From Lentisphaeria bacterium (GTDB lineage: Bacteria > Verrucomicrobiota > Lentisphaeria > Victivallales > Victivallaceae), in the NCBI GenBank assembly GCA_017504585.1, contig JAFVQX010000190.1, forward strand, positions 250 to 64,249: a DNA stretch of 64,000 bases. The letters are read 5' to 3'. The translations under genes and the position numbers were made by a program. The notes beneath the pieces were generated by a model. That model was not told the DNA's origin. It did not search any database and worked only from the letters and a program-made list of their open reading frames with translations. Of the stretch, positions 41 through 51,523 are shown piece by piece; position 1 is the stretch's first letter; each line of letters begins with the position of its first letter.

Positions 41-1096
41 TCACTTTTCCTGCTGCAAACGGAATATCTCTTTTTGCTGTTCGATTTCTGTTCGCAACTG
101 TTCCTGGGTCGGCAAATAGGTCAGATATTTTGCCGCAAACAGTTGTTCATTGTCGTGCAGCACCGAATATCGGGCTATATCGTGACTGGTTTCTGAACAA
201 AGCAATATGCCGATCGTTGGATTGTCGCCTTCTGAACGCTTCAGGTCATCGAACATTCTGACATACATATCCATTTGACCGACATCCTGATGGGTGATTT
301 GAGTTGTTTTTAAATCTATCAGCACAAAGCATTTCAATATATAGTTGTAAAAGACCAGATCAATAAAATAATCTCCGGCATCGGTGGCAATATGCTGTTG
401 CCGGGCAACAAACGCATAGCCTTTGCCCAGCTCCATAAGAAACTTTTGCAAGTGGTCAAGTATGCTTTGCTCCAGCTGACTTTCGGTAAAACTGCTGTGG
501 TTGGAAAAACCCAAAAACTCCGCCACTACCGGATTTTTGATAAATTCAAGCTTGTCTGCTTGAGTTGGAGCTGTAAGTTTCTGCATTTCTGCAACCACAG
601 GTTTGGTATCGTGGCTTGCCAGCAATCTATGATAATACTGACTGCCGATATTGCGCTCAAGCGTTCTGGAACTCCATGCTTCATTGGCAGCCTCATTCAG
701 ATACCAGATCCGTGCTTCAGCATTAGGTTCCCGCAAAACCGCCCGGAAATGCGTCCAACTTAAATTTTGAACGCGCGCGTTCAAAATTGACAGATCCGGG
801 AAGCACAAGTAGAACTTTTTGTAATAAGCCAAATTGCGGGCATTGTAATTACTTCCGAATTCCAGAGAAAGGCTTTCGGCAAGAGCATTGAGCAAGTTTT
901 TGCCATATTCAGCACGAACTTTGCCCTGTTGTTCTTCTTCGACAATACGCTGACCGATTTTCCAATAAGTATTTGTTATGACGGCATTAACTGCAGTATA
1001 CGCTGCCTGTCGCCCGTCAGCGATTATCTGCCGAATGTCGCCAAGCAGCGCCAAGTCGGGAGCAGATACAGAAAAAATATTCTCTTCTTTGTTCAA
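41..1096 (-). CDS. PDDEXK-family nuclease, YhcG/DUF1016-like
   Basis: The translation matches the DUF1016 pattern: N-terminal 'YWKIGQRIVEEEQ...YGKNLL' and a C-terminal PD-(D/E)xK-like core 'YFIDLVFYNYILKCFVLIDLKTTQ'. The ORF-track start is GTG at 1177. I prefer TTG at 1096 (AAGG 8 nt upstream) because a terminator ends at 1178 and a TTGTAA-N16-TATATT promoter-like element lies at 1137-1164 inside the long version. The start remains uncertain. Confidence 0.8.
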   Translation of the reverse strand: MNKEENIFSVSAPDLALLGDIRQIIADGRQAAYTAVNAVITNTYWKIGQRIVEEEQQGKVRAEYGKNLLNALAESLSLEFGSNYNARNLAYYKKFYLCFPDLSILNARVQNLSWTHFRAVLREPNAEARIWYLNEAANEAWSSRTLERNIGSQYYHRLLASHDTKPVVAEMQKLTAPTQADKLEFIKNPVVAEFLGFSNHSSFTESQLEQSILDHLQKFLMELGKGYAFVARQQHIATDAGDYFIDLVFYNYILKCFVLIDLKTTQITHQDVGQMDMYVRMFDDLKRSEGDNPTIGILLCSETSHDIARYSVLHDNEQLFAAKYLTYLPTQEQLRTEIEQQKEIFRLQQEK

Positions 1097-1177
1097 AGTC
1101 ACTACCTTATGCGTTAAAATTGCCTGTTTATGAGTAAATATAGCATGGCTATCGAGTTTTACAAGCCGCACAAGCAC

Positions 1178-1208
1178 AAAAAAACGCTCCCTCTTGCGAG
1201 AGAGCGCT
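1178..1208 (-). terminator. Rho-independent terminator after pseudopilin paralog 1
   Basis: The minus strand reads CGCTCTCT-cgcaag-AGGGAGCG followed by TTTTTTT. Confidence 0.7.
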
Positions 1209-1243
1209 CTTTATCAGACTTGTAGTATCAGACTACGCAAACA

Positions 1244-1840
1244 TTAGTTGTAGGTGATCTGGTCAAGTACTTTGTAATCGGAGACGCCAGAAACAAGTTG
1301 AGGCAGTCCGCCAACATGACCACCAAGGTAGCAAACATTGGTATTTTTAGGATGGCAGCCACTCATATCCCACCAAGTGGCTGCACCGGGATTGTCGCGA
1401 CCGACGATCACGCGCTTTTTGCCATTGGTATCATCGTCTTTGATCCAATTGAAATAGGAAGATTTAGCCGGTTTAGCCTCAGTAGCCCCCTCGCCTTCGC
1501 CTGAAGCAGCTACTGCGTCAGCAAAGTTGGTGCTGTCGCTGGGGCATTTGAAGCATTTTTCTGCAATGTCTTTAGTGAGGGTTGTGACATTCATGCCCAT
1601 AAAACCACCGAGGACCAACTTATCCCCAGGGGCGGTACCTCCGTAAACAATGCTATCCGCGAAGGGAAGAGCAGCATCCGGGCACGCAACATAATCTTTG
1701 TTGACGCCGGAGTACATGAATTCGCCGAGGCCGATCTGCTTGAGTTTGCTTACGCAGTTGGCACTGCGGGCGCGTTCACGGGCGGCGGAGAGGGCGGGCA
1801 GCAGCATGGCAGCCAAAATCGCGATGATAGCGATTACCAC
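1244..1840 (-). CDS. Prepilin-like (T2SS/T4P pseudopilin-like) protein, H-X9-GG variant, atypical N-terminus (paralog 1)
   Basis: It has the hydrophobic helix '[25 protein letters not shown]' typical of the prepilin-type N-terminal methylation domain. The C-terminus '[15 protein letters not shown]' gives H-X9-GG-H. There is no in-frame ATG (first start is GTG) and no G/FTLIE motif. Confidence 0.7.
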
Positions 1841-1901
1841 CGTAAGTGTGGTGACGGCAAGTGTCGCGGTGGCCGGGGCAAGCCCGACAGTACGGTAGAT
1901 A

Positions 1902-2810
1902 TCAGCTTTTTTTCTGTGTCATCTTCCATAAACTGTGTTGTTGCCAATTTGGGACAAAACCTATCCGGGGCAACGGCAAACACTCAAACTCTTTTGTCAG
2001 AGCTTCGATCCTTTTATGCCAATTTGTTGTTGGCGCACAGAATTTCAACAGATAGCTTAACATCAATAATACAAAGAAAGGTTTCTCATTGTCAAAGTCT
2101 GTCCAGAAAGAAAAACTTTTTCCGTTTGGACGCTTGGGTATAATACCAAGACGCCGGTTCCAGAGCCGGGCATGATGGGCGCAAATATTACGAACGTGGT
2201 TCATTGTATGCAACCAGCTTTCTAAAATTGCAACCGGCAAGTCGAATGACGATGCTACTGCTTTTTTTTCCTGATGATGCATGTTTCTGTACATTGTAAA
2301 TATAGTTCCGAAAGAAACAACTTCTGCAACCATCCAAAGCGGCAGATGCTCATTGGTATATTTTTGGCGGTAATGAGCTACAAAAACTTCTTTACTGCGA
2401 CGAACCTCACTATCTATTGCTGATAGAAATTTTTCAAAATTATCATCATCAAAAGAGTTGAAGTTTTCCTTTTCAAGATATCCGAAAGCTCCATGATTTT
2501 TGACAAATACGCTTATAATGCGAGCTTTAAGAGCTGTTTCGACCCGTTCCAAAGCATCAAATATCAAAATACGCAACCGTCTGTCAAACGCATATCTGCG
2601 ATATATCTCGTCAAAACTTGTTCCATCTCGATAGTTTTCTTGACCGGGAATTCTGAAAGGGTAAAGATAGGCAGACAAGCGGTAATAGCTGATATTTTCC
2701 AATAATGCAACTAATCTTTCTCTGCATTTTACTTGCAAACCTCGTGAAATCAAAAGATCCGCCTGTTGCTCTGCGGAAAGAGGTGGTTTGTTATAAAATT
2801 CCAATTGCAT
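1902..2810 (-). CDS. Abi_2 family (AbiD/AbiF-like) abortive-infection protein
   Basis: Abi_2-like motifs are present: '[11 protein letters not shown]', '[17 protein letters not shown]', '[13 protein letters not shown]', '[14 protein letters not shown]'. The gene is visibly more AT-rich than its surroundings. Confidence 0.85.
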
Positions 2811-13940: not shown

Positions 13941-14010
13941 TCCCATACTCTCCCATACTCTCCCATACTCTCCCATACTCTCCCATATTTTCCCATATTT
14001 TCCCATGATC
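13941..14010. repeat. 10-bp tandem satellite, 7 units
   Basis: The units are tcccatactc x4, tcccatattt x2 and tcccatgatc x1. Confidence 0.95.
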
Positions 14011-14125: not shown

Positions 14126-15883
14126 TTATTGGGCGGCTTTTATGCTCGAAACTGTGCCGCGGCGATAACGTTTTGAGCTTGCCGGTATAAGTTTATCGGG
14201 TATGGCGTCGTAACTTACCTGACCTACCACCAGAAGTTCGGTGTGTTTGACTGATTTGCTTTCGCTGCTGAATAAATACCCCAGATACGGTATATCCATC
14301 AGCCACGGGATACCCGATTTGCTGGTAACTTGGGATTGTTTTTTCAATCCGCCGATAATGAACTCGCCGCTGCCGTAGGGCAGACTGACATTCTGCACAA
14401 TGGTGCTGCCCGGAGCTATGCGGGGGGCGCCGTTGGATTGAAAACCCAGCAAACTGGTGTTGACCAGCTTGACGGTAAAGCGGGTTTCATCCAGCCCCAC
14501 CGCCACATTATTTACGCTCATGGAAAAACCGAATTGCTGCGAAAGCGCCGTAAGCTGTTGATTGCCTTTACCCACCCGGATGGGTTCCGCATCGGTCAGG
14601 GTTTCGCCGGTGACTTTGCCGATGATATTGCTCAAAAGTTCGTAAGCCCCCACTCCGGTGTTGGGGAAAAGCACTTCGCCGGTGGAGCTGGGTGCCGGCT
14701 GGGAAGTGTCGCTGTAAAAAATGTGGGTCATGCGCTCCAGTGTGGCAGTGGCAGAATTGCGGACACACATTTCGCCGGTCAGCATCACTTGAGCTTTGCC
14801 CATCGAGGTCAGGAAATCTATGTAGCGGCTGTTCCATTTGGGGTTGAAGTTATAAAAACTTGAGCGTTCGCTGCCCGCCGCCTGACTTAATCCTGTGGCA
14901 TCATAAAGAGCGTTCCAGTTGTTGCGGTAGCGGCCGCCGCCGGAAAAGAAGTCTGCACCCTGATTATTTTTCCAGGACTGAAAATCTATACCCATTTTAT
15001 CATCGTTTTCGCTGTCGATTTCGTAAACGGTTACTTTTATGCGCACTTGCGGGATGGGCACATCGTATTTTTTGAGCATTTCGGCAATGTTGTTTGCCGA
15101 GTAATTTTCCACGTCAAAAATCAGCCAGTTCAGATCCGGGTCGTACGCCACCAGATCCTGCCCCTGCCAGAGTTCGGTGGCATCGCTTATATTCATACCC
15201 ACATTCTGGATCAACGGCTGGAGATTTCTTGCCGGAACGAACTTGGGCATGTAGATAAAAAAGGGATTACCATAGCTTATGGCTCCCAGCGCCGGATCAT
15301 CCAGCGTGGCGACCAAGGTATCTATGCCCATGCCGTTGGGGTGATCCTTGAATCGGTATTCTTCGGCGCTGACCAGCAGCAGACCGGTGCCGTCAACATA
15401 TTTCAGACACTCCACTGCCGTATTGCTGCCCAGCTGGGCGACCGGGGTGTAGCCGACCTGGGCGTTGGGCGGATTGAGAGTCAACTGACTGACAGTGCTG
15501 GTAACCGGCAAAGTCACAGTATTGCCGTTGACTGTGGCGGTGTTGTTTACGTTGGTGGGATACTGCTGAACAAGCGACGTATTACCCACCCGCTTGCTTT
15601 GTACCATTTGCCGGAGATAATCGCGGAAGTTGTAGGCATCGACGTTTTTCACCAGATAAGTTTTGGTTATCACCCGCGGATCGTTGTTGTCGCGGATAAA
15701 GTGTACGGCTTCGGCATTTTCTTTAAGCGGCACCACGATCCGGGCCTCCACCCTTGTAGCGTCATAGCCGCCGGTATTATTATTGTTGCTGTCCCGGGGG
15801 ACGCCGGGGATGGCGGCTGCCGGCAGCATAAAAGTCATGCAGCAAGTGGCAGTACACATAAAAATCGTTTTATATATATTCAT
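14126..15883 (-). CDS. Secretin-family outer-membrane channel protein (paralog B)
   Basis: It has a signal peptide (MNIYKTIFMCTATCCMTFMLPAAA) and a secretin-domain start 'VRIKVTVYEIDSENDDKMGIDF'. The canonical secretin C-terminus is 'FIIGGLKKQSQVTSKSGIPWLMDIPYLGYLFSSESKSVKHTELLVV'. The start is taken at ATG 15883. Confidence 0.75.
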   Translation of the reverse strand: MNIYKTIFMCTATCCMTFMLPAAAIPGVPRDSNNNNTGGYDATRVEARIVVPLKENAEAVHFIRDNNDPRVITKTYLVKNVDAYNFRDYLRQMVQSKRVGNTSLVQQYPTNVNNTATVNGNTVTLPVTSTVSQLTLNPPNAQVGYTPVAQLGSNTAVECLKYVDGTGLLLVSAEEYRFKDHPNGMGIDTLVATLDDPALGAISYGNPFFIYMPKFVPARNLQPLIQNVGMNISDATELWQGQDLVAYDPDLNWLIFDVENYSANNIAEMLKKYDVPIPQVRIKVTVYEIDSENDDKMGIDFQSWKNNQGADFFSGGGRYRNNWNALYDATGLSQAAGSERSSFYNFNPKWNSRYIDFLTSMGKAQVMLTGEMCVRNSATATLERMTHIFYSDTSQPAPSSTGEVLFPNTGVGAYELLSNIIGKVTGETLTDAEPIRVGKGNQQLTALSQQFGFSMSVNNVAVGLDETRFTVKLVNTSLLGFQSNGAPRIAPGSTIVQNVSLPYGSGEFIIGGLKKQSQVTSKSGIPWLMDIPYLGYLFSSESKSVKHTELLVVGQVSYDAIPDKLIPASSKRYRRGTVSSIKAAQ

Positions 15884-15890
15884 AGTGAAA

Positions 15891-17318
15891 TCACTTTTCC
15901 ATGGCAAAAAGTTTACCGGGTTCAAGCTCGGCTGGTGCGGCGGCACTCAAGAGTTTGGCAGTTACGGTCAAATAGACTTTGCATTGCTCTTTTTGGGTGG
16001 TCGTGGTACTGAAAAGGTATTTCAGTATGGGTATTCTCGATAAAAAGGGTACCCCGATGACCTGTTCCACTTCCTGCTGACAATCCCATTGACCGAGAAT
16101 GAACTCTTTATCCAGATCCAGCAGTACGCTGGAATCCATACTGTTGGTATTGACCAGTTCTTCGCCGGTGTTGCTGCGCTCCAGTACGGTGGCGCTCTGG
16201 ATGCTGTAAGAAAAAAACACCGTGCCGGGATATTGATTGTAAGCACCGGGTTTATAAGGTTTTACCGAAAAAACTTCGCTGCTGTCATACCCCGCTTGCC
16301 CCTGACCGTAATGGAGATTGACAATAGGCTGATCGATCCGCAGATAAAGCTGATTGAACCCCTCCGGCAAATTCAGATTGCTGGCAGTCACCGAGGTTAT
16401 ATCGTTGTTGTTTTTGACGATATTTTGCAGCTGGGGGTTGAAAAATATCTCGTAACTTGCTGTATCGCTGTTGGATGCATTGAGCGTGGCGGTGCCGGTA
16501 ACGCTGGCATTGCCTTTTTGTGCCAGCATACGGATAAAGCTGGCATCAAACTGGGGCGCCACCAGAAATCCCCCCACCGGCCCGGAGATGGCAGTCAAAG
16601 CCGCCGAACCGCCGGAACTCAAACTAAAGGCGTCAAAAGCGGTCTGAAAGATGTTCAATCCGGGGCCGTTTTTCCACGCCAGATACTCTATGCCCAGATC
16701 CCGGAGGGTGCTTTCGCGTAATTCATAAAGTTTAAGCTCAAAAACGATCTGGGGCGCCGGGCGGTCGATAAAGGTGAGAAACTCAAAAACAAAAGGTGTG
16801 TTGGAGCTGTTGTCTTTCCAATAGATCTGGTTGGAATTCTGGTCGTAGGCGTAGACCGCCCCCGCCGGGCCGGTGCCGATGACAGAATTTACCAGCACAT
16901 TGATCAGGCCGGAACCGGAACGGTATTTGGGCTGATAAACGGCGCGGGTTATACCTGTACCGCGGATAATATCGCCGGGTTTTCTGCCGTCGATCCTGAT
17001 ATTGCGGTCCACTTTGGCAACAAAATCATCCACATAAGGCATCATCTTTTCGGGACAGCTTACGGTCAAAAGCTGTTCGTTGTTGCCGCCGAGGATGGTA
17101 TTGGCGCTGGAATTTATATTGTAACGCATGACCATACCCAGCACAAAAGGAACCAGATCGTTGGCTTGAACATATTTGAGCTTGTAGATCTTGGAAACCA
17201 TGTAATCCTGGGCATCGTCCTGGATCAGATGCACTTTCTGTACTGTTTTTTCCTGGGGTACAGCCAATAATGGCAGCATAATACCGAGTACTGCCGCTCC
17301 TGTAAAAAATTTTCTCAT
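15891..17318 (-). CDS. Secretin-family outer-membrane channel protein (paralog A)
   Basis: It has a signal peptide, 'FELKLYELRESTLRDLGIEY', and the C-terminus 'VIGVPFLSRIPILKYLFSTTTTQKEQCKVYLTVTAKLL'. Its N-terminal domain is alignable to paralog B. Confidence 0.7.
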   Translation of the reverse strand: MRKFFTGAAVLGIMLPLLAVPQEKTVQKVHLIQDDAQDYMVSKIYKLKYVQANDLVPFVLGMVMRYNINSSANTILGGNNEQLLTVSCPEKMMPYVDDFVAKVDRNIRIDGRKPGDIIRGTGITRAVYQPKYRSGSGLINVLVNSVIGTGPAGAVYAYDQNSNQIYWKDNSSNTPFVFEFLTFIDRPAPQIVFELKLYELRESTLRDLGIEYLAWKNGPGLNIFQTAFDAFSLSSGGSAALTAISGPVGGFLVAPQFDASFIRMLAQKGNASVTGTATLNASNSDTASYEIFFNPQLQNIVKNNNDITSVTASNLNLPEGFNQLYLRIDQPIVNLHYGQGQAGYDSSEVFSVKPYKPGAYNQYPGTVFFSYSIQSATVLERSNTGEELVNTNSMDSSVLLDLDKEFILGQWDCQQEVEQVIGVPFLSRIPILKYLFSTTTTQKEQCKVYLTVTAKLLSAAAPAELEPGKLFAMEK

Positions 17319-17344: not shown

Positions 17345-17384
17345 TAAAAATCCTGCTGTTGCCAAAGGAACAAACAACAGCAGG
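17345..17384 (-). terminator. Rho-independent terminator after lipoprotein gene
   Basis: A perfect 10-bp stem CCTGCTGTTG/CAACAGCAGG (17352-17361 and 17375-17384) is followed on the minus strand by ATTTTTAA. Confidence 0.75.
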
Positions 17385-17410
17385 AAATACTTATGCTTTA
17401 TCGATCTCGA

Positions 17411-18058
17411 TCAAATAAAGCCAAAGCTGACGACTTGCGCTTTTTTATCGACTTCGCCAATAGTCACCTGAAAAAGCGCCTGCTGAACCAGCTCACCGGA
17501 GTTTTTGCTCAATTTCTTGAAGCCGATCTTCCAGAGCCGGATGCTCAACACCGGGTGCTTGAGGTCGGTAACAAAATCCGCGCTGACCACTTCGCCCATG
17601 GCGTCGGTCATCATTTTATGCGCTTCAAGGAATTTCTTTTCGTTGAAATCCTTGCGGAGATTCTCCGGCAGTGCGGCAACAAAAGCTTTGGCATCGCCGT
17701 TTTTGAAAGCATGGGCAAGGGTGGACGCCAGTTTGGAGGACTCTTTTTCAAACTCCGCCAGCGGGCATTTGTGCTGACGGGCAACTTCCACAGTTTTGGC
17801 GGTTTTGGCGTCGGCTTTGGGGGCGGTTTTGTCATCGCACTTGGCATCTTTGCAAGGGGCGGTCGACTGCATGGCGCTCTTGGCTTTATGCGCAGCGGGG
17901 CAGTTGGCGGTGGCGGCACATTCTTCTACGATGATGGCTGAACCGCCGGGGACGGCGGCGACTTCTACGGTTTCGCTGGTCTGGCATCCGGCAAAAATCG
18001 AACCTGCACTCAATACGATTGCCAGCGAACCAGCGAGCTTCCACGACATTTTTTTCAT
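17411..18058 (-). CDS. Hypothetical lipoprotein
   Basis: It has a signal peptide plus lipobox 'IFAGC' and a Cys/Lys/Ala-rich linker. No family was recognised. Confidence 0.6.
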   Translation of the reverse strand: MKKMSWKLAGSLAIVLSAGSIFAGCQTSETVEVAAVPGGSAIIVEECAATANCPAAHKAKSAMQSTAPCKDAKCDDKTAPKADAKTAKTVEVARQHKCPLAEFEKESSKLASTLAHAFKNGDAKAFVAALPENLRKDFNEKKFLEAHKMMTDAMGEVVSADFVTDLKHPVLSIRLWKIGFKKLSKNSGELVQQALFQVTIGEVDKKAQVVSFGFI

Positions 18059-33191: not shown

Positions 33192-33956
33192 ATGAAAAAA
33201 TCAATGATTTTCAGCTCAAGGACTTCACATAATGCATATTATGCGAAGCAACAGAAGTTTACGCTGATCGAACTCTTGGTCGTGATCGCCATTATTGCCA
33301 TTCTGGCGGCCATGCTGCTGCCGGCGCTGTCGGCTGCCCGGGAGCGTGCCCGTACTTCCAACTGTATAAACAACTGCAAGCAGATCGGTTTGGGCGTAAA
33401 TATGTATGCCGACAGTCACAATGATTATGTTCCGCCCCATGCAGTAGCCAATGTTGATTACCCCTCGGTAAAAATCTCATGGGCGGGGCTGATGTGGAAA
33501 GAAGGCTTGATCGACAGCGAAGTGATTTCCTGCCCCAACGCCCCGATTTCGGCGGGGGCTAAATTCAATAATTACCGTATGACCAGCCAGAGCAGCCAAA
33601 CCATTTCTTTTGATATACCTTACGGTATCCACCGTTGGCTTATCCGCAGTACGCTCTATAAGCGCGCCACACCAGCCAATCCGGCGGCAGCAATGCTTTA
33701 TGCCGACAGTGCCAATGGCGGTTCCTCCAAAGGCTACTATGTGGTTGCTGAAAGGTGGAGCGTTGTAGCCAAAAACAACTTCGGCTCTATTGCCTCCCGG
33801 CACGCCGGAGCTGCCAACTTTGTGTATTTTGACGGCCACGCAGAAACCATTATGACCAAATGCAATATCGAACCGGCAAATTATACTGCTGATACCAACC
33901 CCTATAATGATTTGCCCGCATTTGACACTACCGAAGAATTCTGGGGTGCCAAATAA
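33192..33956 (+). CDS. Prepilin-type N-terminal domain protein with H-X9-DG C-terminal motif (DUF1559/HX9DG pseudopilin-like)
   Basis: The N-terminus is '[33 protein letters not shown]'. The C-terminus is '[13 protein letters not shown]', exactly H-X9-DG. Confidence 0.85.
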
Positions 33957-33989
33957 CCTTTTTATGCTGAAACCAAGGAGATTTTTTAT

Positions 33990-34643
33990 ATGAAAAAACA
34001 ATTTTTTACCATTGCCGTATCCGCCCTCGCTCTTACCACGCTTTTTGCCGCTGAACCTACGCTGGATATTACCGGCGACAAAGCACAGGATGTGGTTGTG
34101 GCGGGCAAAACTTATAAATTTGATGGAGCAATCAAAGATGTTGCCGGAGCCAAAGTCATGGCTTTCGGCGAAAAACCCCTTGCGGTGCCCGGCAAAACTT
34201 TAGTGGACGAATCCGGCTCTATTGTTATGGAATACGCCATTGATACCAAAACCTCCAAAAGCGGCGCCCGTCCGCTGGTCTGTCTGCGGTTGGAAGGCAA
34301 CAAGCAGATAGCGTTTTTCACCTTCCACGGCAATCCGGTGATCCAGCTGCGGTTCGGCAATCCGGTTTTTGCCGACAGAAACATCAAACTTACGCCCAAA
34401 AAAATTCACCAGTCGGCAGTTACCTGGGATGGCAAGCAGATCAAGTTCTATTTGGATGGCAAACTTATTTACGAAGCCAAACAGCCGCTGCCGGTCAAGC
34501 CTGCCAACATTGCTCTCTTGACCGTAGGGCCTTTCCGCGATCAGTATTTTATCACGCCCACCTGGGATAACGACTGCTTTATGAAGCGGCTGCGGGTTTA
34601 CAACACTGCTCTTTCGGCAAAAGAAATTGCAGAACTCAAATAA
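33990..34643 (+). CDS. Secreted LamG-like domain protein
   Basis: It has a signal peptide and is clearly alignable to the N-terminal ~220 aa of the next gene ('WDGKQIKFYLDGKLIYEAKQ' vs 'WDGDKIRCYFDGKLIKEAKQ'; 'TPTWDNDCFMKRLRVYNTALSAKEIAEL' vs 'VPAWDNDTFIKSLRLYDRVLSNEEVAKL'). Confidence 0.75.
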   Translation: MKKQFFTIAVSALALTTLFAAEPTLDITGDKAQDVVVAGKTYKFDGAIKDVAGAKVMAFGEKPLAVPGKTLVDESGSIVMEYAIDTKTSKSGARPLVCLRLEGNKQIAFFTFHGNPVIQLRFGNPVFADRNIKLTPKKIHQSAVTWDGKQIKFYLDGKLIYEAKQPLPVKPANIALLTVGPFRDQYFITPTWDNDCFMKRLRVYNTALSAKEIAELK

Positions 34644-34673
34644 GTGATCCAAACATATTTTCCGAGGTTTTCC

Positions 34674-37600
34674 ATGAAGTTATCCAAACTCTTTACTGCC
34701 CTTTTCGTCTTTTTTGCGGCAGTGGCCATGATGGCAAAAGATGCCACGCTTGCCATTGATTTTTCCAGTGATAAATCAATCAAAGTCAACAACCAGACTG
34801 TTGAGTTTACCGGCACTCTCCACGAGATCGACGGCGAAAAACTTATGGCTTACGGCGATAAACCCTGCCAGATACCGGTCAAAGGGCTGGTGGGCAAACA
34901 AGGCACGATGGTTTTGGAGTTTGCTTTTGATAAACCCATGCGTAAAACCAAAAGTGTAGTCCGCACGCTGGCAGTACTCCGGGCCAACGGCAGAGAAGAG
35001 GTGGGGTTTTACTCCTTTGTCAACAACCCCATAGTGCAGTTCCGCTTTGCCAACGGCAGAAAGAATTTTTACGGCGGCACCAAAAAGCTCCCCGGCAGAA
35101 AGCTCCACAAAGCGGCGTTCAGTTGGGATGGCGACAAGATCCGCTGCTATTTTGACGGCAAACTTATCAAAGAAGCCAAACAGGATTTCCCCATTGCAGA
35201 CGGCAAGCTGGAAATTTTGAATATCGGGCCCCTCAAAGACCGCTGGTACCGGGTCCCGGCGTGGGATAACGATACATTCATCAAAAGTTTGCGGCTCTAC
35301 GACCGGGTGCTTTCCAACGAAGAAGTTGCCAAACTTGCCGGGGTGAAAAATAAGCTCATCCATCAGCGTTACCCCAGAGTTATGGCAGTTCCACAGCGGA
35401 ACAGCGAGTTTTCAGGCGGTATATCTTACATGCTTTTGCACCGCTTGAGAAACAGCGAAAAATCATGGGAACTGCCCAAAAACGACGCGGCATTTTCTTA
35501 CGATAAAGATAATCTTTATGTGGATTTTACTACCATTTTCCCCGCTAAAACTTCGGTTTTGAAAGGTCATTCGGCAGCCGATCCCGAATCCGGGGTGTGG
35601 GGCTTTGAATCTTTTGAACTGCACTTGCGCCACAGCGGCAAGCAATACTACTTTGGCGGTACCGCAGCGGGCGGCAAAGCCGATTCGCTGAAAAATGTGC
35701 CCAACTATAACCCCAAGTGGGATTACAGCTCGCATATTTCCATGCAGATAGATGATACATTTCTCTGGCAGGGCAAAGTGGCGATCCCGTGGAAAGCCAT
35801 CGGTTTGAGCAAGGTACCCCAAGAGCTTAAAATGAATTTCTGCCGCAGCTTTTTCAATACAGCTGTTACGGCGGCGACCGACCTTGCCGCCCAGCCGGGC
35901 AAAAGTTACTGGGCTGATGATGAATACTTTTTCACCCTCAAATTCCCCAAAAACGCGCCCTCACTTAAGGTAATCAGCCGGGGCAATCCCTCTTTTGGCA
36001 ACATAGAGCAGGAGTTTGAATTTGTTTCGCCGGTGGATCGCACGGTCAAGTTTTTCATTATTCAGGAAAGCAATTCCGGCTTGCTGACCCCGCAGGCGTT
36101 GGCGGCTCTTACCATCAAGCTCAAAGCCAACGAACCGGTTCGCCAAAAGGTGCAAACGCCTTTGACCATGCTCCACGCCGACCGGCTGGTGTATAAACTT
36201 ACTTCGGCAGACGAAAAAACCGTATTCTTTTCGCAGGATGTACCGCTGAAAATATCGGCTCAATACTTTACGGTAACACCCCTGTATTACGCCGGAAAAA
36301 TCGAACTTGCCGTAAAAACCGCCATCCTCAAAAGCAAATACGGCAACAGTGCCAAGCTGCTCATCACCCTCAAAGATCCTTCCGGCAAAGTGATTTACAA
36401 AAACAGTAAACTTGCCGACCTTGTCAGCATACCCTTTGCTGTTCAAAGTGTTCCCGGCTCCTATCTGCTGGAAATAACCGACGGCAAGGGCGAAGTCATT
36501 TCCGGTCAAACCCTCTATTACCCCGGCATCGGCGAATGGAGCAAACTTGACTTTGATATGACCAGAATAATCCCGCCTTATACCCCCATGACTTACGCTG
36601 AAAATGGCACTTTTACCGCCCAAGTGGTCAACCGGGATTATCGCTGGAACAAAGATGATTTCCTGCCTCAAACCATCACTTCCAGGGGCGAAAATCTCAT
36701 TAAAAGTGCGTCGATCCTGGTCAACGGTCAGGCAATTTCCGGAACGTTTCAGAAAAAATCCGCCTTGCCCCACCGTGCCGAATTTTCCGTTAAGGGCGGC
36801 AATGCCGACTGCCGGATAAATTCCGATGGCTGGCTGGAATTTGACGGCGTTCAGCACAATGTTGTGGAAGTTACGGCGTTGAAAAATATCCGTTCTTTGG
36901 AATTGCAGTTTGTGCTGCCCGCCAGATTTGCCAAATATCTGCACACTTCCGCCAACGGCTGGAGCAACAAGATCACAGCCAAGATCCCCAACGGCAAGTT
37001 TGAATATAAGTTTTATCCGGTGAATTTTATCGGCAACGAAGAGAAAGGTTTGTGTTTCTTTGCCGAAAGCTCCCGCAGCTGGAACGGCAGCGCCAAACCC
37101 TTTATCATTACCAAAAATGACCAAGACGCCGTCTTTACCGTTGTTATTGCCAAAAATCTGCAAGCCGGGGAAATGCTCACTTTCGATTACGGCTTGCTGG
37201 CTTCTCCGGTCAAACCCCAGCACCCCCGCTACCCCCTGAACACCGCCAGCTGGCAGTGGAACGTTACCATGAACCGCCCGGGCAAAACGCCCACAAGCTG
37301 GTGCGGGTATCTGCCCGGCGTAGGGGGGACTCTTGCCGACGCCTTTGCCGATGTGCCGGGCGTGGATAACGATACACTTGTCCGCAAAGTGCAGGAAAAT
37401 GTGGAAATTTTCAAAAAGAATAATGTCAAACCATTTATTTACAACCCCTTCTACACCTCCGACGAATACCCCGAAGTTCAGGCTTTCGGCAACGAGTGGG
37501 AGTGCGTGCCCCGTCAGGTCTGGACGGGCAAACGCAAAAACAAGACCCACACCCTGTTCCTGCTCTGCCCCGCCAGCCGGGGGGCGGATTTCTTCCTCTA

Positions 37601-38552
37601 CCGGGTCAGAGAATTTGCCCGCAAGACCAAGATCCACGGTGTGAACTTTGACTTCGGCATCGTGCCCCATTGCGACAATAATCACCACGGTTGTTACAGC
37701 CGCACGCCGCTTCTGGCATACCGCAACTTCTACCGCAAGCTGGCGATGATCTTAATGGATAACGGGGTGGAAGATTACATTATCCATGTGCATAACACCA
37801 GTTCCGTACAGCTGCCCAGTTATACATTTGTAACTCACTTGCTCAATGGCGAACACATCCGCCAGCAATCCAGTACCCTCATGCACAACGGCAAAGATAT
37901 TCTTGACAGCTACCCGGTGGAGATGTTTGCCTGCGAGTTGAGCAGTCTGCCCTTTGGCATAAACAACGCTGTTTATCAGTCCAATGATAATTTGATGAAG
38001 CAATTCGGCGGCGGCAAGGAAGATGAGGAACTCTACAAATTGCGGATAACCCGGGCATTTTTGAGCGGCACGCTGCTGCACAACACCATAATCTCCCTCA
38101 ACCGCTGTCACCACGGTATCTTTGATAAAATCGTGCGTATCTACGATAAATTCAATGTTCCGGCAGCTGAATTCATCGGCTATTGGAGCGAAAAGGCTCC
38201 CAAAGTGGTGCAAGGTAAAGAGGTGTACGCCAGCGTATACAAACACCCCACGGAAAATAAACTTTTGGCAGTAATTTCCCACATCGGCAATCAGCGGCTG
38301 GATCAGGAAGTAGTGGTCAAATTTGCGCCGGCAGCGCTGGGCATGAAAACTTTCAAAACCGCCAGAGAATTGCTGGAAGCCGACGATCCGGAATATTCCG
38401 AACTTTACAAGTTGCGCAAAGCCAACGATTTGCCTATTGTCAGAATTCAGCTCAAGTGGCAAAACCCCGGCATAAAGCTTTTGGAGTTCAAAAACAACAC
38501 CATAAAACTCAAGCTCCCCGCCCACAGCTTTGCCATAGTGGAACTGCAGTAA
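34674..38552 (+). CDS. Secreted ~1290-aa protein: LamG-like N-domain, CBM9-like domain, large putative glycoside-hydrolase-like C-terminal region
   Basis: It has a signal peptide 'MKLSKLFTALFVFFAAVAMMA' and a LamG-like N-domain. 'FSYDKDNLYVDF...FELHLRH' is CBM9-like. The remainder is unassigned by eye. The start is at ATG 34674. Confidence 0.6.
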   Translation: MKLSKLFTALFVFFAAVAMMAKDATLAIDFSSDKSIKVNNQTVEFTGTLHEIDGEKLMAYGDKPCQIPVKGLVGKQGTMVLEFAFDKPMRKTKSVVRTLAVLRANGREEVGFYSFVNNPIVQFRFANGRKNFYGGTKKLPGRKLHKAAFSWDGDKIRCYFDGKLIKEAKQDFPIADGKLEILNIGPLKDRWYRVPAWDNDTFIKSLRLYDRVLSNEEVAKLAGVKNKLIHQRYPRVMAVPQRNSEFSGGISYMLLHRLRNSEKSWELPKNDAAFSYDKDNLYVDFTTIFPAKTSVLKGHSAADPESGVWGFESFELHLRHSGKQYYFGGTAAGGKADSLKNVPNYNPKWDYSSHISMQIDDTFLWQGKVAIPWKAIGLSKVPQELKMNFCRSFFNTAVTAATDLAAQPGKSYWADDEYFFTLKFPKNAPSLKVISRGNPSFGNIEQEFEFVSPVDRTVKFFIIQESNSGLLTPQALAALTIKLKANEPVRQKVQTPLTMLHADRLVYKLTSADEKTVFFSQDVPLKISAQYFTVTPLYYAGKIELAVKTAILKSKYGNSAKLLITLKDPSGKVIYKNSKLADLVSIPFAVQSVPGSYLLEITDGKGEVISGQTLYYPGIGEWSKLDFDMTRIIPPYTPMTYAENGTFTAQVVNRDYRWNKDDFLPQTITSRGENLIKSASILVNGQAISGTFQKKSALPHRAEFSVKGGNADCRINSDGWLEFDGVQHNVVEVTALKNIRSLELQFVLPARFAKYLHTSANGWSNKITAKIPNGKFEYKFYPVNFIGNEEKGLCFFAESSRSWNGSAKPFIITKNDQDAVFTVVIAKNLQAGEMLTFDYGLLASPVKPQHPRYPLNTASWQWNVTMNRPGKTPTSWCGYLPGVGGTLADAFADVPGVDNDTLVRKVQENVEIFKKNNVKPFIYNPFYTSDEYPEVQAFGNEWECVPRQVWTGKRKNKTHTLFLLCPASRGADFFLYRVREFARKTKIHGVNFDFGIVPHCDNNHHGCYSRTPLLAYRNFYRKLAMILMDNGVEDYIIHVHNTSSVQLPSYTFVTHLLNGEHIRQQSSTLMHNGKDILDSYPVEMFACELSSLPFGINNAVYQSNDNLMKQFGGGKEDEELYKLRITRAFLSGTLLHNTIISLNRCHHGIFDKIVRIYDKFNVPAAEFIGYWSEKAPKVVQGKEVYASVYKHPTENKLLAVISHIGNQRLDQEVVVKFAPAALGMKTFKTARELLEADDPEYSELYKLRKANDLPIVRIQLKWQNPGIKLLEFKNNTIKLKLPAHSFAIVELQ

Positions 38553-40115: not shown

Positions 40116-41081
40116 ATGGTAACCCTTAAAGATGTGGCACGGGAGCTGGGACTTTCCACCGGCACTGTGTCGATGGCACTGAACAATTCACCGCGGATCA
40201 GTGCGGAAACGACTAAACAGGTGCATGCTGCTGTCCGGGCATTGGGGTATACACCCAATAACTTCGGTCGGGGGTTGCGTTCCGGCAAAAGCCGTCTGGT
40301 TGGTTATTTCTCCAATCATCTGGATGCTTCGTTTCTTACCGAGATCTTTCTGGGGGCGGGCGAAAAGCTTGCTGAACGCGAATATGGTATACTTTCCTGC
40401 TGGCCGGCAAAGCGTTCGGCAGGCAATATATCGCACAATTTGGATATGATGCTTTCCAAAAATGTCGATGGTATAATTTTTGTCGGCGGCGACTGGTTGT
40501 CGCTGGGCGGTGAGGCGTTTCAAATGCTGGAAGATCGCAACATACCATTTGTTTTTTGCAGCCGCCATTGTCAGGAATATAATGTACCTTTTATTGTGAC
40601 CGACGACCTGCTGGGCGGCGAAATGGCTGCCAACTGTCTGCTGGAGCACGGTCACCGGGTCATATTGTGCGAATACAACGACTCCATCGAACGGCGGCTA
40701 CGGGGAAATCTGAACGCGATCAACCGTTACAGCGATGCCAAAAGTGTAATGTTTTATCAGGCAGAAGAAGTTCCGGAACTGATAAAAAAGCATCATGCCA
40801 CGGCTGTGCTGACTTTTTCTGACCGGCACGCTTTTGATGTGATGCATGTTTTGCGGCAGGCCGGATACCGTATTCCGGAAGATATATCAATTATCGGCTA
40901 TGATGATATAGAATATGCCGCCCGCCCGGAATTTGACCTGACCACCATACGGCAGCAGCGCAAGAAACTTGGTGAACTGGTAGCAGAATACATCTTGGAT
41001 CGCCTGGATGGCAAAGAGCCGGAAAAAGCACAGCTTCTGCCACCGGAGCTGATAATGCGCGGGTCGGTAAAGGTGATGTAA
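40116..41081 (+). CDS. LacI-family transcriptional regulator
   Basis: The HTH is 'VTLKDVARELGLSTGTVSMALNNSPRISAETTKQVHAAVRALGYTPN', followed by a periplasmic-binding-protein-like sugar-binding fold. Confidence 0.9.
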   Translation: MVTLKDVARELGLSTGTVSMALNNSPRISAETTKQVHAAVRALGYTPNNFGRGLRSGKSRLVGYFSNHLDASFLTEIFLGAGEKLAEREYGILSCWPAKRSAGNISHNLDMMLSKNVDGIIFVGGDWLSLGGEAFQMLEDRNIPFVFCSRHCQEYNVPFIVTDDLLGGEMAANCLLEHGHRVILCEYNDSIERRLRGNLNAINRYSDAKSVMFYQAEEVPELIKKHHATAVLTFSDRHAFDVMHVLRQAGYRIPEDISIIGYDDIEYAARPEFDLTTIRQQRKKLGELVAEYILDRLDGKEPEKAQLLPPELIMRGSVKVM

Positions 41082-41207: not shown

Positions 41208-42047
41208 ATGAACATCAGAAAGAGTTTCACTCTGATCGAGCTATTGGTGGTTATTGCCATCATAGCTATTCTGGCAGCGATGCTGCTGCCGGCTTTGAGT
41301 GCAGCCCGCAGCCGCGCCAAAACCGCCAACTGTGCCAACAACCTCAAGCAGATCGGGCTGGCACAAACTATGTACTCTGCAGATTTCGGAGACTGGATCA
41401 TCACAGCATTTCCCAAGCCGTGGAACAGCGATCAGGCATGGTTCTGTATTTTAAGCGGCAAAACATTTTACGGCACCAAACTCAATGACGGTTACGGTTT
41501 GGATATGACCGGTTCCCAGGCCGCTCCCAGCAAAGTGGACAACTTTCAATGCCCCGGCGAAGCTGTGCCCTACAAACTTAAAACTTCCGGTCATGTGACA
41601 ACGGAGTTTTCTTTTACTCATTACATAACAAACTGTGCGGTTACCGGCAGTTTTTTGGGAGGATCCAGTGACCGTAACTCTGCAAGCCTCGGAGCCAATT
41701 GTACCCAAAGTTACCGTCATTTGAACGGTGTGAGCGATCCCTCGCTGGCGATGTTTGCCGGCGACAGTTATCGTTATAACGCTCTTACCGGTGCACGCCC
41801 GTGTCATTTTGCATTCCGTCACGGTGCCGGAGAAAGCCGTAAATTCGGTGAAAATTACACCAACAACGATGGTATTTCCAAGGGAAGTACCGGTAACTTT
41901 ACCTTTATTGACGGCCACGTGGAAGAGCTGACGCTTGACGAACTTATGAGTCACAAAGATGAAATGGGCCGCTCCGGGCATGACGGAACGGCCAGCGACT
42001 GTCTGCGTTCGGGCATCTGGATAGATAAAGTAACGGCATATCCGTGA
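41208..42047 (+). CDS. Prepilin-type N-terminal domain protein, degenerate H-X9-DG tail (K-X9-DGH)
   Basis: The N-terminus is '[33 protein letters not shown]' and the C-terminus is '[16 protein letters not shown]'. Confidence 0.8.
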
Positions 42048-42080
42048 TAACAAGTTATAAACTTTTAAGGATAAAAAAGT

Positions 42081-45008
42081 ATGAAAAAATTCAATCTCAA
42101 AAGTTGCCTGACTGCCGCAGTATGTTTTACCGCTGCGGTACTTACAGGTTCCAACATCATCCCCAATGGGGATCTGAGCTATAAAATCAACAATGTACCG
42201 GCATTCTGGAGTCTGGGCAAAAAAAATGCAGTTTACAGCGCAACTGCCTGCGAGGGGAAACCGGCATTGGTGCTGACCGACGGCGGTATGGCACGGCAGT
42301 TTGCATCGTTTCGGATCGTGCCCAAAGCCAAATACCGTTTGAGTGCCAAAGTGCGTTTGAGTCAGGGCAATGCCAACGGCAGTGCTGATATTATGGTGGT
42401 CAATCAGAACTGGAAGAGTTCCAGCGGTTTGATGAAAATCAAACCCACTGATAAGTGGCAAACCATCAGCCGGGAGTTTTACGGCTTTACTTCTTCGGAT
42501 AAAACTTACGGTGTAGTGGTTCGAGCCAGAGCCATCCAGGGCAAATTTGAAGTTGCCGACATCAAATTGGAAGCTTTGACCGCCGAAGGCAAAGCCAACA
42601 GCCGTTCGCTGTTTTCCACCCCCGGCAGCCGTGAAAGCCTCAATACCAATGGTGCTTTGGATGCCGACCAAAGCGAGTTTCCTGCTTACTGGGCAACTGA
42701 TGGCGGCGCTGAATTCCTCCGCGGCGGCGGGCCCAACGGCAAAAATGCTTTGCGTTTTGATACAGTAAAAGTCAAAAAAGCCGCTGTCCGTCAGGATCGG
42801 GCAATGATCCTCAATGCCGGAAAACGCTACCGGGTCAGCATGATGGTCAAAGCGGTCAACTTCAAAGCCCGGCGGATGAGCTACACGATCTTTGCCGACA
42901 GCTGGGCAAAAGAAGCCGGTGTGGTCAGAGTGCCGCAAAATTGTGATTGGACTCTGGTGGAAGCGATCGTTTTTGCACCCAAGTGCAAAGCCAATTACGG
43001 CAGCGGTCTGGCAATGCGTGCTGATGCCAGGAGTTCCGGCTATATCGACATAGCTGATTTGCGGATCGAACCGCTGGACGAAGCTGCCGCCAATGGTGCA
43101 TATTCGCTGCTGCGCGGGCTGGAAAAAAACCGTCTGGTGGTTTTGAGCAAACTTGCAGAAATTCCGGTCAATGCTCCGGGTATTTCCGCTCTGTGGTTTG
43201 GCAAACTTGCTGAAAATGCCAAATTGGAATACCGCATAGATAACAAAAACTGGCAGCAGCTTGCACCAGCTGAGTCCGGCAGATACAATATAAAACTTAC
43301 CGGGATCAAACTTGGCAAACACACCTTTGAGTTCCGCTGCGGCGAATTCAAGCGCAAATGGGATTTTACAGTTGTTCCGCCGGTGCCCAAGGTAAAAAGC
43401 AAGCGGCTGAACAATCTGGTGCGTGAACTGGAGCCGCTGCAGCTGAAAGATGGCGAAAGCAGAGAATTTATCAATCCGCGTACCGGATGGGTCTATTTTA
43501 TTTTACCCAACGCCGATGCCACGCTGGAAGTTGCCACTCAAAAACCGGTCCGCAGCGCCGGTCACGCATATCTTACCCGTGGAAAACACAAGATAACACT
43601 CAAAGGAGCTTCCGGCAAAGTCATTATCCGTCTGATCCCGGAAATCTACACCTATCAGCTTGCCGGCGGTCCTTATTTGAAGGTTGCCCCAAAGAATGAT
43701 TACAAGCTTATCAAGAAATATCTGCTGCCTTACATCAACAGTTACGCCCAGCCCGGTAAAGGCAACCTGACCGCCAAAGAATGGGAAATCATCTATTCGA
43801 CCAATCTGCAGCGGCAGCACGGCAACCATATAGCCAAATACCCCACCAGCCAGGCGATGATCGACGGGGTAAACAACAACGAAGGCTTGAATGATCCGGC
43901 TTTTGTGGGTATAACCTTTGACGAATTTCCCGCCGGTGATGTAACTTTGATGGCGCGTTACAACGAAGCACACGATTTTATCAAACGCCCGGAAGGACAT
44001 CGTTTCTTTTACTGCCTGTACGGCAAGCTTGCTGCCGGTGGTATATCAGCAGAGTTTATTTCCAACGCTATCAATTCCGGGCATGGCGACAGCATCATAA
44101 AGTACGAATCCTACTGCCAGCCGGTGCCGACCGAAGAAGCTGCCAGATCTTATATCAGAAACATCATTGTTGAAACCGCCAAATCGCTGGAACGCACCTT
44201 TCCCGGAGCGGTGAAAAATCTCTGTATGTATATGATCAACAGCAATGTGCCGTCAACATTGACCGCGGCGTATCTTACCAATGTGGATTTGAAATACTAT
44301 CTGGATATGCAGTTCAATCTGATCGCCAACGATCCGGCGCTGGAAGGTTTGGCAATGGCGGGCAACTGGGGCAGTAATTACTCTGACAACGAGATGGTGC
44401 GTTGGACAGGCCGGCTTTTCCGGCACTATCTGATCGAAGGCAACACCGAGCCGCTGGCTCCCAGATACGGCTTTACCTACAATGTTAATTTTGTAAAAAA
44501 TGCCGACTTTGAAAAAGGACTCACCGGTTGGCAGGTGGAGGGTACAGTAAAAACCGGTCATACTCCCCTTTATGGCCGAACTATGGAAAAACGCTGGGCG
44601 GCGCCCAATGGGATCGGCGACTACTACGCAATTCTTGAACGCGGCAGCAAGCCCAATGTGATGTCGCAGAAAATGCAAGGGATCAAAAGTGGCAAATATT
44701 ATAAAATACAGTATATTACCAGCGATGCAGAAGATGTGATGCTTACCGGCAAAGGCAAACCCGGCGACCTTTCCATCGATTGCGAAATCGACGGCGCAGA
44801 GTTTGTGCCCAAAGAAACCATGAAATACCGTGCTCATGGCCCGTTCCGCAAGATCGATAAAAACATGTTCAAAGTCAATCTTGATTGCCGGGTGTTCAAG
44901 GCTGTCAAGGATGATCCGGTGATCCGTTTTACCGATAAATCAGTCAAACCCGGGCGTAAAACCGCTCTTAACTACATATATATAACCCCATTTTTTGAGG
45001 AAGAATAA
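42081..45008 (+). CDS. Secreted 975-aa protein with repeated CBM4_9-like carbohydrate-binding modules and a central unassigned (putative hydrolase) region
   Basis: It has a signal peptide. Modules begin 'NIIPNGDLS...FW', 'NTNGALDADQSEFPAYW' and 'VKNADFEKGLTGWQVEG', each with 'KYRLS/RYRVS/YYKIQ' strands typical of CenC-like CBMs. Confidence 0.55.
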   Translation: MKKFNLKSCLTAAVCFTAAVLTGSNIIPNGDLSYKINNVPAFWSLGKKNAVYSATACEGKPALVLTDGGMARQFASFRIVPKAKYRLSAKVRLSQGNANGSADIMVVNQNWKSSSGLMKIKPTDKWQTISREFYGFTSSDKTYGVVVRARAIQGKFEVADIKLEALTAEGKANSRSLFSTPGSRESLNTNGALDADQSEFPAYWATDGGAEFLRGGGPNGKNALRFDTVKVKKAAVRQDRAMILNAGKRYRVSMMVKAVNFKARRMSYTIFADSWAKEAGVVRVPQNCDWTLVEAIVFAPKCKANYGSGLAMRADARSSGYIDIADLRIEPLDEAAANGAYSLLRGLEKNRLVVLSKLAEIPVNAPGISALWFGKLAENAKLEYRIDNKNWQQLAPAESGRYNIKLTGIKLGKHTFEFRCGEFKRKWDFTVVPPVPKVKSKRLNNLVRELEPLQLKDGESREFINPRTGWVYFILPNADATLEVATQKPVRSAGHAYLTRGKHKITLKGASGKVIIRLIPEIYTYQLAGGPYLKVAPKNDYKLIKKYLLPYINSYAQPGKGNLTAKEWEIIYSTNLQRQHGNHIAKYPTSQAMIDGVNNNEGLNDPAFVGITFDEFPAGDVTLMARYNEAHDFIKRPEGHRFFYCLYGKLAAGGISAEFISNAINSGHGDSIIKYESYCQPVPTEEAARSYIRNIIVETAKSLERTFPGAVKNLCMYMINSNVPSTLTAAYLTNVDLKYYLDMQFNLIANDPALEGLAMAGNWGSNYSDNEMVRWTGRLFRHYLIEGNTEPLAPRYGFTYNVNFVKNADFEKGLTGWQVEGTVKTGHTPLYGRTMEKRWAAPNGIGDYYAILERGSKPNVMSQKMQGIKSGKYYKIQYITSDAEDVMLTGKGKPGDLSIDCEIDGAEFVPKETMKYRAHGPFRKIDKNMFKVNLDCRVFKAVKDDPVIRFTDKSVKPGRKTALNYIYITPFFEEE

Positions 45009-48983: not shown

Positions 48984-49172
48984 TTAATGCTCCATTTTTT
49001 CTGAAAAAAGTTTCTGTTTTACAATATTGGCAACAAAATAACCCGCCTGACGGGCTAATGCAAGAAAAAAACGGTGTTTTTTGCTGAAAAAATTAGTTTT
49101 TTCGGATAAATGGTAGTATTTTAAATAGATTATGTATATATTGATAATGTTTAACTTGTAAAGGATTTTATC

Positions 49173-51500: not shown

Positions 51501-51523
51501 AAAAACAACACAGCGAGGCCGAT

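Follow-up and report, generated by a model that had tools for sequence, protein, structure and literature searches.

A conserved tandem pair of paralogous secretin genes in Lentisphaeria suggests that one secretin consists of, or depends on, two different subunits

We analyzed a 64,000-nt stretch of a Lentisphaeria bacterium genome (GenBank assembly GCA_017504585.1, contig JAFVQX010000190.1, positions 250 to 64,249; hereafter the window) that carries a tandem pair of secretin genes, here called S1 (upstream) and S2 (downstream). Type II and type III secretion, type IV pili, DNA uptake, and filamentous-phage export all use secretins as their gates in the outer membrane. To our knowledge, every secretin characterized so far is a ring of one protein, and we know of no described secretin that is built from or dependent on two different subunits. 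The conservation of the S1-S2 pair suggests that such a secretin may exist in the Victivallales, an order common in human and ruminant guts. What is new here is a conserved, co-evolving two-secretin cassette with a companion lipoprotein. The interpretation we favor, at a little below an even chance, is that S1 and S2 are ancient, lineage-specific secretin paralogues that act as obligate partners in one outer-membrane complex, both being required for the channel. On balance we think it probable that the two proteins work in the same complex, either as channel partners or with S1 as an accessory.

The tandem secretin genes and their products

An initial annotation of the window described two adjacent genes, 7 nt apart, that share secretin C-termini and an alignable N-domain. 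Direct reading of the sequence confirmed the coordinates of the two, which are minus-strand open reading frames (ORFs), the C-terminal strings quoted for the two proteins are present in the translations, and the N-domains of both contain the common strand VH[LF]I[QR]D. The genes are arranged as follows:

15891..17318, minus strand: S1, upstream secretin paralogue (ORF and translation; 475 aa)
15884..15890, minus strand: spacer between the S1 stop and the S2 start (direct reading; exactly 7 nt)
14126..15883, minus strand: S2, downstream secretin paralogue (ORF; 585 aa)

S1 begins with the ATG at 17318 and ends with a TGA at 15891-15893; S2 begins with the ATG at 15883, and its 3' end lies at 14126. 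The last codons of S1 hold a GGA-rich stretch, and this stretch together with the 7-nt spacer is an arrangement compatible with translational coupling of the two genes. The S2 start according to metagenome gene callers is M16 (570 aa); read from the ATG at 15883, the protein starts with a signal peptide of normal form (MNIYK, followed by a hydrophobic stretch and AAA/IPG). Both genes are intact in the window and neither is a pseudogene.

The Pfam Secretin search that had been proposed as a check placed both proteins above the gathering score of PF00263 (27.5 bits), with 40.3 bits for S1 and 53 bits for S2, over model positions of about 85-168 only. The S2-type protein of a second cassette found in another genome (L029, see below) matches PF00263 positions 2-167 of 169. 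The match to Pfam Secretin_N was sub-threshold (14.7 bits). As judged from a BLASTP alignment that is colinear over the full length (E 6e-16, 20% identity) and from the hhalign alignment of their orthologue-family profiles (99.6% probability, E 1.5e-24, 418 aligned columns), S1 and S2 are full-length paralogues with the same domain order. The shared plan consists of a signal peptide (read from the sequence in both proteins), two N-domains with a predicted beta-alpha-beta-beta-alpha secondary structure, a secretin domain, and a short tail:

S1: Sec signal peptide; N-domains at about 28-110 and 120-188; secretin domain at about 190-457; short tail
S2: signal peptide; conserved N-terminal peptide; two N-domains; secretin domain with an insertion at about 390-450

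The greater length of S2 comes from its conserved N-terminal peptide, from about 50 aa inserted in the first N-domain, and from the insertion in the secretin domain. The tails past the barrel measure about 20-30 aa in both proteins.

Profile searches against solved structures returned secretins only. The best match of S1 was pIV of phage f1 (7ofh, E 2e-9), with S1 residues 41-109 being N3-like and aligning to the pIV N3 domain; the margin of pIV over GspD and PilQ was small. The best match of S2 was GspD/EpsD (6i1y, E 1e-8). AlphaFold2 monomer models were built from alignments of 15 (S1) and 25 (S2) close orthologues and, being of low confidence, were used for a Foldseek family check only, with no analysis of gate, lip, or interface. 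The top 40 Foldseek matches of each model were all secretins, aligned over nearly the full length, with PulD and GspD as the first matches for both.

Conservation, duplication and fusion of the pair

More than 120 orthologue clusters were found for S1 (at least 58% identity) and more than 120 for S2 (at least 60% identity), nearly all from metagenome-assembled genomes of Lentisphaeria or Victivallales. The initial annotation had raised the question whether the tandem pair is conserved across Lentisphaerota. When one genome per species was scanned, 138 genomes had S1 relatives, and in all of the 80 loci kept (80/80 species-level genomes, all Victivallales/Lentisphaeria) an S2 orthologue lies directly downstream of S1 on the same strand. 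Both genes are present as S1-then-S2 on the same strand at 94 loci in all. With start codons picked heuristically, the median gap from the S1 stop to the S2 ATG is about 10 nt across these loci, many of which have a 4-nt ATGA overlap. Split ORFs were seen in three loci only (L041, L044, and L065) and look like assembly or long-read errors. The pair is kept in every locus with room for both genes, except in one degenerate lineage.

The S1-then-S2 order is also kept in a group of divergent cassettes (L087-L096) that are 31-43% identical to the window pair. These include one from a groundwater metagenome (L088) and others from further metagenomes (L089-L096); the metagenome search patterns came from a 4-sequence alignment. 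Hidden Markov model profiles of S1 and S2 sort all relatives cleanly into S1-type and S2-type families. When 1.84 billion representative proteins were searched by profile, S2-type proteins came out as the closest to S1 outside the S1 type itself, which points to an origin of the two genes by lineage-specific duplication. The pairwise distances of S1 and S2 are closely correlated over 85 cassettes (r = 0.97), with near-equal identities.

A Lentisphaeria genome from yak rumen (L029) holds two complete S1-S2 cassettes, 7 kb apart:

L029:155-3107: one S1-S2 cassette
L029:9884-13146: another S1-S2 cassette (about 40% identity between the two)

Unrelated genes separate the two (ABC permease, CYTH, thioredoxin-reductase-like). 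These two whole cassettes show that the S1-S2 cassette duplicates as a unit, and for the same reason some of the seemingly distant pairs may not be orthologues from distant taxa but second cassettes in the same phylum.

The degenerate lineage is GC-rich, and the pair is degenerating at the following loci:

L085:8880-11344: S1-type gene without a barrel, followed by a shortened S2-type gene
L104:2872-4611: S1 N-domains fused to an S2-type protein
L105:2395-3711: S1 gene gone

In L085, the S1-type protein is reduced to two N-domains and an Ala-rich tail (370 aa), and the gene for the shortened S2-type protein follows after 8 nt. The L104 protein (P0316, 579 aa) is an in-frame fusion of the S1 N-domains to the S2-type protein, with 49% identity to residues 15-179 of the L085 S1 and then 57% to residues 36-439 of the L085 S2. 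Two further representative clusters (P0317 and P0341) have the same fused architecture, and a profile search with the fusion alignment returned nine proteins. The S2-type protein of this lineage has no Pfam Secretin match. This fusion is evidence of the Rosetta-stone type that the S1 N-domains would act in the same complex as S2. The initial annotation had reasoned that its idea would fail if one copy lacked a complete barrel or were a pseudogene in relatives; such loss is found in the GC-rich lineage only, and the pair in the window is not affected.

One complex or two channels

Strict adjacency, co-divergence, co-duplication, and fusion together argue that S1 and S2 are one functional unit. 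The initial annotation had proposed a hetero-oligomeric or stacked channel, and the strict pairing at 94 loci, the distance correlation, the duplicated cassette, and the fusion are what a two-subunit complex predicts; this agreement concerns the partnership and does not extend to the form of the channel itself. We consider a mixed S1-S2 ring plausible. Coupled translation would supply the two proteins in a fixed proportion, and after export by the Sec pathway they would assemble into a single gated channel needing both subunit types, perhaps helped by the companion lipoprotein as a pilotin. The most likely form would be a mixed, for example alternating, ring, in which two very highly conserved kinds of N-domain could dock onto different periplasmic or inner-membrane partners.

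The outer-membrane complex would serve a machine of the type IV-filament class, similar to a type II secretion system (T2SS) or a type IV pilus (T4P), in Victivallales/Lentisphaerota, with the inner-membrane ATPases, platform, and (pseudo)pilins probably encoded elsewhere in the genome. Possible substrates are exoproteins driven by a pseudopilus (such as the many glycoside hydrolases with genes beside DUF1559 genes), a pilus, or an exopolymer. About 14 loci have a PMT_2 glycosyltransferase gene just upstream of S1, and secretins have recently been implicated in slime export (PMC12475490).

The pair was described at first as an orphan. This holds for the window, in which the pair lies apart from the rest of any T2SS, T4P, or type III secretion system gene set, and such isolation is usual elsewhere. 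By tblastn, no PilB/GspE or PilC/GspF homologue was found in the 64-kb window, nor does it hold a further secretin besides S1 and S2. Among the Pfam hits listed for the window genes, taken from scans or from precomputed labels of same-species contigs, the only type IV-filament assembly families are those of three N_methyl/DUF1559 genes; no targeted search for pilM/pilN/pilO/pilP was made in the window or in the loci. In about 100 loci, no gspE/gspF adjoins the pair except in Lentisphaerae SIG83 (L024), and the divergent cassettes have no type IV-filament core genes beside them. In L024, the lipoprotein-S1-S2 unit has the following genes next to it in divergent orientation, so that the description as an orphan does not apply there:

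L024:4569-9287, minus strand: two tandem PilB/GspE-type ATPases and a PilC/GspF, beside the secretin pair

Identity between the two ATPases is 44%, and each falls a little short of both the PilB and the GspE NCBIfam cut-off. Through this gene neighborhood the pair is tied by association to a type IV-filament machine. We also observed that the duplicated ATPase parallels the duplicated secretin and that there is one platform gene only.

A fuller version of the favored reading can be offered tentatively, as possible rather than probable. In this version S1 and S2 would co-assemble into the first natural hetero-oligomeric secretin, one channel with two kinds of subunit, probably even-numbered and alternating; the N-domain sets would couple to a type IV-filament machine with duplicated ATPases, and the lipoprotein would represent a new type of pilotin. 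Several results weigh against the favored interpretation itself. Every secretin structure returned by our searches holds one secretin species, in 12-17 copies. A correlation of r = 0.97 is also expected for any two vertically inherited neighboring genes. Type IV-filament core genes adjoin the pair in 1 of about 100 loci, and the confidence of the AlphaFold2 monomers was low (pLDDT 54.5 for S1 and 44 for S2). The GC-rich lineage does without the S1 barrel, so a mixed ring of two barrels is not required there.

The main alternative, which we regard as unlikely but still to be taken seriously, is that S1 and S2 form two independent homo-oligomeric channels, co-transcribed for regulatory convenience and each serving a different machine or substrate (for example, a T2SS-like exporter on the one hand and a pilus or DNA uptake on the other). 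Each protein looks complete by itself, and the solved structures with their single secretin species fit this arrangement well. Paralogous secretins have separate roles in Myxococcus (PMC12475490), and the two different PilB/GspE-type ATPases beside the L024 pair could mean two machines. Two such channels would, however, be expected to separate occasionally or to be linked each to its own machine, yet the S1-S2 order and the few-nt gaps persist in 94 loci, down to about 31% identity. Duplication of the whole cassette in L029, the placing of S1 N-domains on an S2-type protein, and the single platform gene in L024 also count against two channels. In addition, a separate secretin of the PilQ type already exists in bacteria of the Planctomycetes-Verrucomicrobia-Chlamydiae (PVC) group: Amuc_1098 is the secretin that abounds in the outer membrane of another PVC bacterium, and Lentisphaera has a homologue of it (PMC4960237). 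The S1 and S2 families are probably separate from this PilQ-type secretin and coexist with one in the phylum.

It is rather improbable, in our view, that S2 alone forms the channel and that S1 is a secretin-derived accessory in the same complex (a periplasmic ring, platform adaptor, gate or plug, or scaffold) of which the N-domains are the essential part. This would suit the L085 protein, which keeps only N-domains and an Ala-rich tail, and the fused proteins P0316, P0317, and P0341, in which the S1 N-domains alone precede S2. The N-domains of S1 are unusually invariant in the orthologue alignment, and S1 scores below S2 with the Pfam and GspD models. There are also precedents for stoichiometric partners that are not channels, namely BfpB-BfpG, a complex with 17:17 stoichiometry (PMC12531336), and RcpA-TadD (8odn). 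Against this, the main lineage keeps the whole S1 secretin domain, strongly conserved, including a C-terminal G-x-P-x-L...P-x-L-x-Y-x-F motif that forms invariant columns. The NCBIfam MshL model spans S1 residues 190-445, and Foldseek aligns S1 over full-length secretins.

We consider it highly improbable that the pair was left behind by an export module of a filamentous phage or mobile element and lies outside any cellular machine: f1 pIV (7ofh, E 2e-9) is the best solved-structure match to S1, which is also pIV-like in size, but its margin over the GspD and PilQ matches is small, neither the window nor about 100 loci show phage or mobility genes beside the pair, and the pair occurs at 58% identity or more in at least 80 species-level genomes in chromosomal housekeeping contexts.

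Comparison with known secretins places S1 and S2 outside the described families. The NCBIfam GspD, PilQ, MshL, SctC, and HofQ models match both proteins, far below each equivalog cut-off, with 61-73 bits for the GspD, MshL, and PilQ models against S2. For GspD (TIGR02517, cut-off 351.35), S2 reached 72.6 bits and S1 35.3 bits; for PilQ (TIGR02515, cut-off 284.35), the scores were 61.4 and 43.9 bits; and for the Amuc_1098 family (NF042912, cut-off 750), S2 reached 23.9 bits and S1 had no match. Like GspD/PulD/EpsD, both proteins have a signal peptide, ring-building N-domains, and a C-terminal secretin domain with a G-[IV]-P-x-L motif. They appear to have two N-domains per protein rather than the four of GspD (Foldseek matches of S1 to XcpQ N0-N2 were weak, E 0.06-0.19) and to lack a recognizable S-domain-like helical tail, and they are two co-inherited paralogues rather than one gene. 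They also lie outside a gspC-M operon, with no gspE/gspF in the window. The PilQ-type secretins share the secretin domain, and S2 weakly matches the PilQ and Amuc_1098 models; unlike PilQ and Amuc_1098, S1 and S2 lack AMIN or TPR N-terminal domains (no TPR region was found in either by the Pfam scan).

The likeness to f1 pIV (7ofh) lies in the similar, short length, in the small number of N-domains, in the apparent lack of an S-domain, and in the N3-like domain match of S1. In contrast to pIV, a homo-pentadecamer encoded once, S1 and S2 have a chromosomal context. In experiments by Kazmierczak et al. in 1994, the pIV proteins of f1 and IKe reportedly formed mixed multimers. By analogy, co-assembly of related secretins would be chemically feasible, although f1 and IKe are not a natural two-gene system. 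The arrangement of a secretin with a stoichiometric partner encoded nearby is known from BfpB-BfpG of type IVb pili, RcpA-TadD of Tad, and GspD-AspS/PulS, but the partner in the S1-S2 pair is a secretin paralogue with its own complete secretin domain. The one precedent known to us for a hetero-oligomeric outer-membrane channel of paralogues is the MspA-like NfpA/NfpB channel of Nocardia (TC 1.B.58; PMC4827864), in which two paralogous subunits build a multi-subunit single barrel; the fold and envelope are unrelated, and the likeness is an analogy only. In the literature on tandem, heteromeric, or paralogous secretins and on secretins of Lentisphaerae, Victivallis, or Kiritimatiellota, we found no such pair described.

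If both subunits are needed, S1-S2 would be the first case of its kind, extending across the whole order Victivallales. It would bear on how ring symmetry and subunit number are set, on how a ring of periplasmic N-domains engages the inner-membrane platform, and on the evolution of paralogous hetero-oligomers from homo-oligomers. If the proteins form two independent channels, the cassette is no more than a conserved operon, encoding two secretin subfamilies that are new and very divergent. The pair also offers a concrete way into the secretion apparatus, so far unexplored, of Lentisphaerota and other PVC bacteria, the genomes of which are full of DUF1559/HX9DG pseudopilin-like genes beside genes for polysaccharide-degrading enzymes.

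Companion lipoprotein, neighboring genes and the rest of the window

Two features precede S1 on the same strand:

17411..18058, minus strand: lipoprotein gene (translation; 215 aa, lipobox FAGC), upstream of S1
17345..17385, minus strand: hairpin (13-bp stem, then five U) in the gap from the lipoprotein gene to S1

The 215-aa lipoprotein reaches the cut-off of no Pfam or NCBIfam family, the only hit being a sub-threshold one to DUF3887 (E 0.077). A homologue of its C-terminal domain (about 110 aa) adjoins the pair on the same strand in 64 loci, upstream of S1 in 11 and downstream of S2 in 53. In ORF clustering across all loci, this domain was the sole recurrent companion of the pair besides minor clusters. 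The protein resembles a pilotin in size, lipoprotein nature, and gene position, pilotins being small lipoproteins encoded next to their secretin; here that position recurs in 64 loci, with the FAGC lipobox in the window protein. The Pfam/NCBIfam scan gave no homology to PulS/OutS, AspS, MxiM/ExsB, PilF/PilW/Tgl, or TadD. We consider the lipoprotein a candidate pilotin or assembly factor of the pair.

The hairpin ends about 30 nt before the S1 ATG and has a predicted fold of -22.2 kcal/mol (z -2.8 vs shuffled sequences). It appears terminator- or attenuator-like; a consensus terminator scan did not report a hairpin upstream of S1.

Next in the ORF clustering after the lipoprotein came an antisense artefact, a PMT_2-type glycosyltransferase (14 loci), and frr (11 loci). 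Genes for frr and a PMT_2 (ArnT-like) membrane glycosyltransferase lie directly upstream of S1 in L087:6006-8463 and about 14 other loci, and this recurrence may reflect either functional linkage or synteny alone.

Downstream of the pair and on the opposite strand are genes for a 171-aa lipoprotein, a YfiO/BamD-like TPR protein, and LpxK. Pfam bore out the BamD-like (YfiO) and LpxK labels of the initial annotation and gave no match for the 171-aa lipoprotein, which had been labeled lptE. The view that this outer-membrane biogenesis neighborhood is a meaningful context was not upheld, the arrangement being species-specific and not conserved in 80 other genomes. We rejected a functional link to BamD/LptE/LpxK, which are neighbors of the pair only in the same species (L001 and L002) and lie at a distance in L072. 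The convergent intergenic gap from the S2 stop to the stop of the 171-aa lipoprotein gene contains a 10-nt tandem repeat (window 13941-14006; 6.6 copies, 96% matches) with the unit TCCCATACTC on the plus strand.

The rest of the window encodes housekeeping genes, glycoside hydrolases, carbohydrate-binding proteins, an RND efflux pump, and regulators. The only type IV-filament-related genes among its listed Pfam hits are three pseudopilin-like genes:

1244-1840: N_methyl+DUF1559 gene
33192-33956: N_methyl+DUF1559 gene
41208-42047: N_methyl+DUF1559 gene

These N_methyl+DUF1559 (HX9DG-type) genes stand directly upstream of genes for large LamG/GH123-like or CBM_4_9 proteins (window 33192-38552 and 41208-45008, also 1244-1840), which suggests that a DUF1559 gene and its large neighbor form a pseudopilin-glycanase module. 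The second DUF1559 cluster has a LacI-type regulator gene (40116-41081) just upstream. At the window edge (41-2810, minus strand), a YhcG/DUF1016 PDDEXK nuclease gene, a truncated DUF1559 gene, and an Abi_2 abortive-infection-like gene occur together and may be a small defense islet.

An 891-aa ORF without a Pfam match (window 48984-51659, minus strand) is the antisense shadow of a 775-aa ORF (49173-51500, plus strand) and is most likely spurious. In a contig of the same species (L003), the counterpart of the 775-aa ORF is called as bamA (POTRA, Omp85), and the shadow ORF over bamA explains why the window and L003 seemed to differ near 49-51.6 kb.

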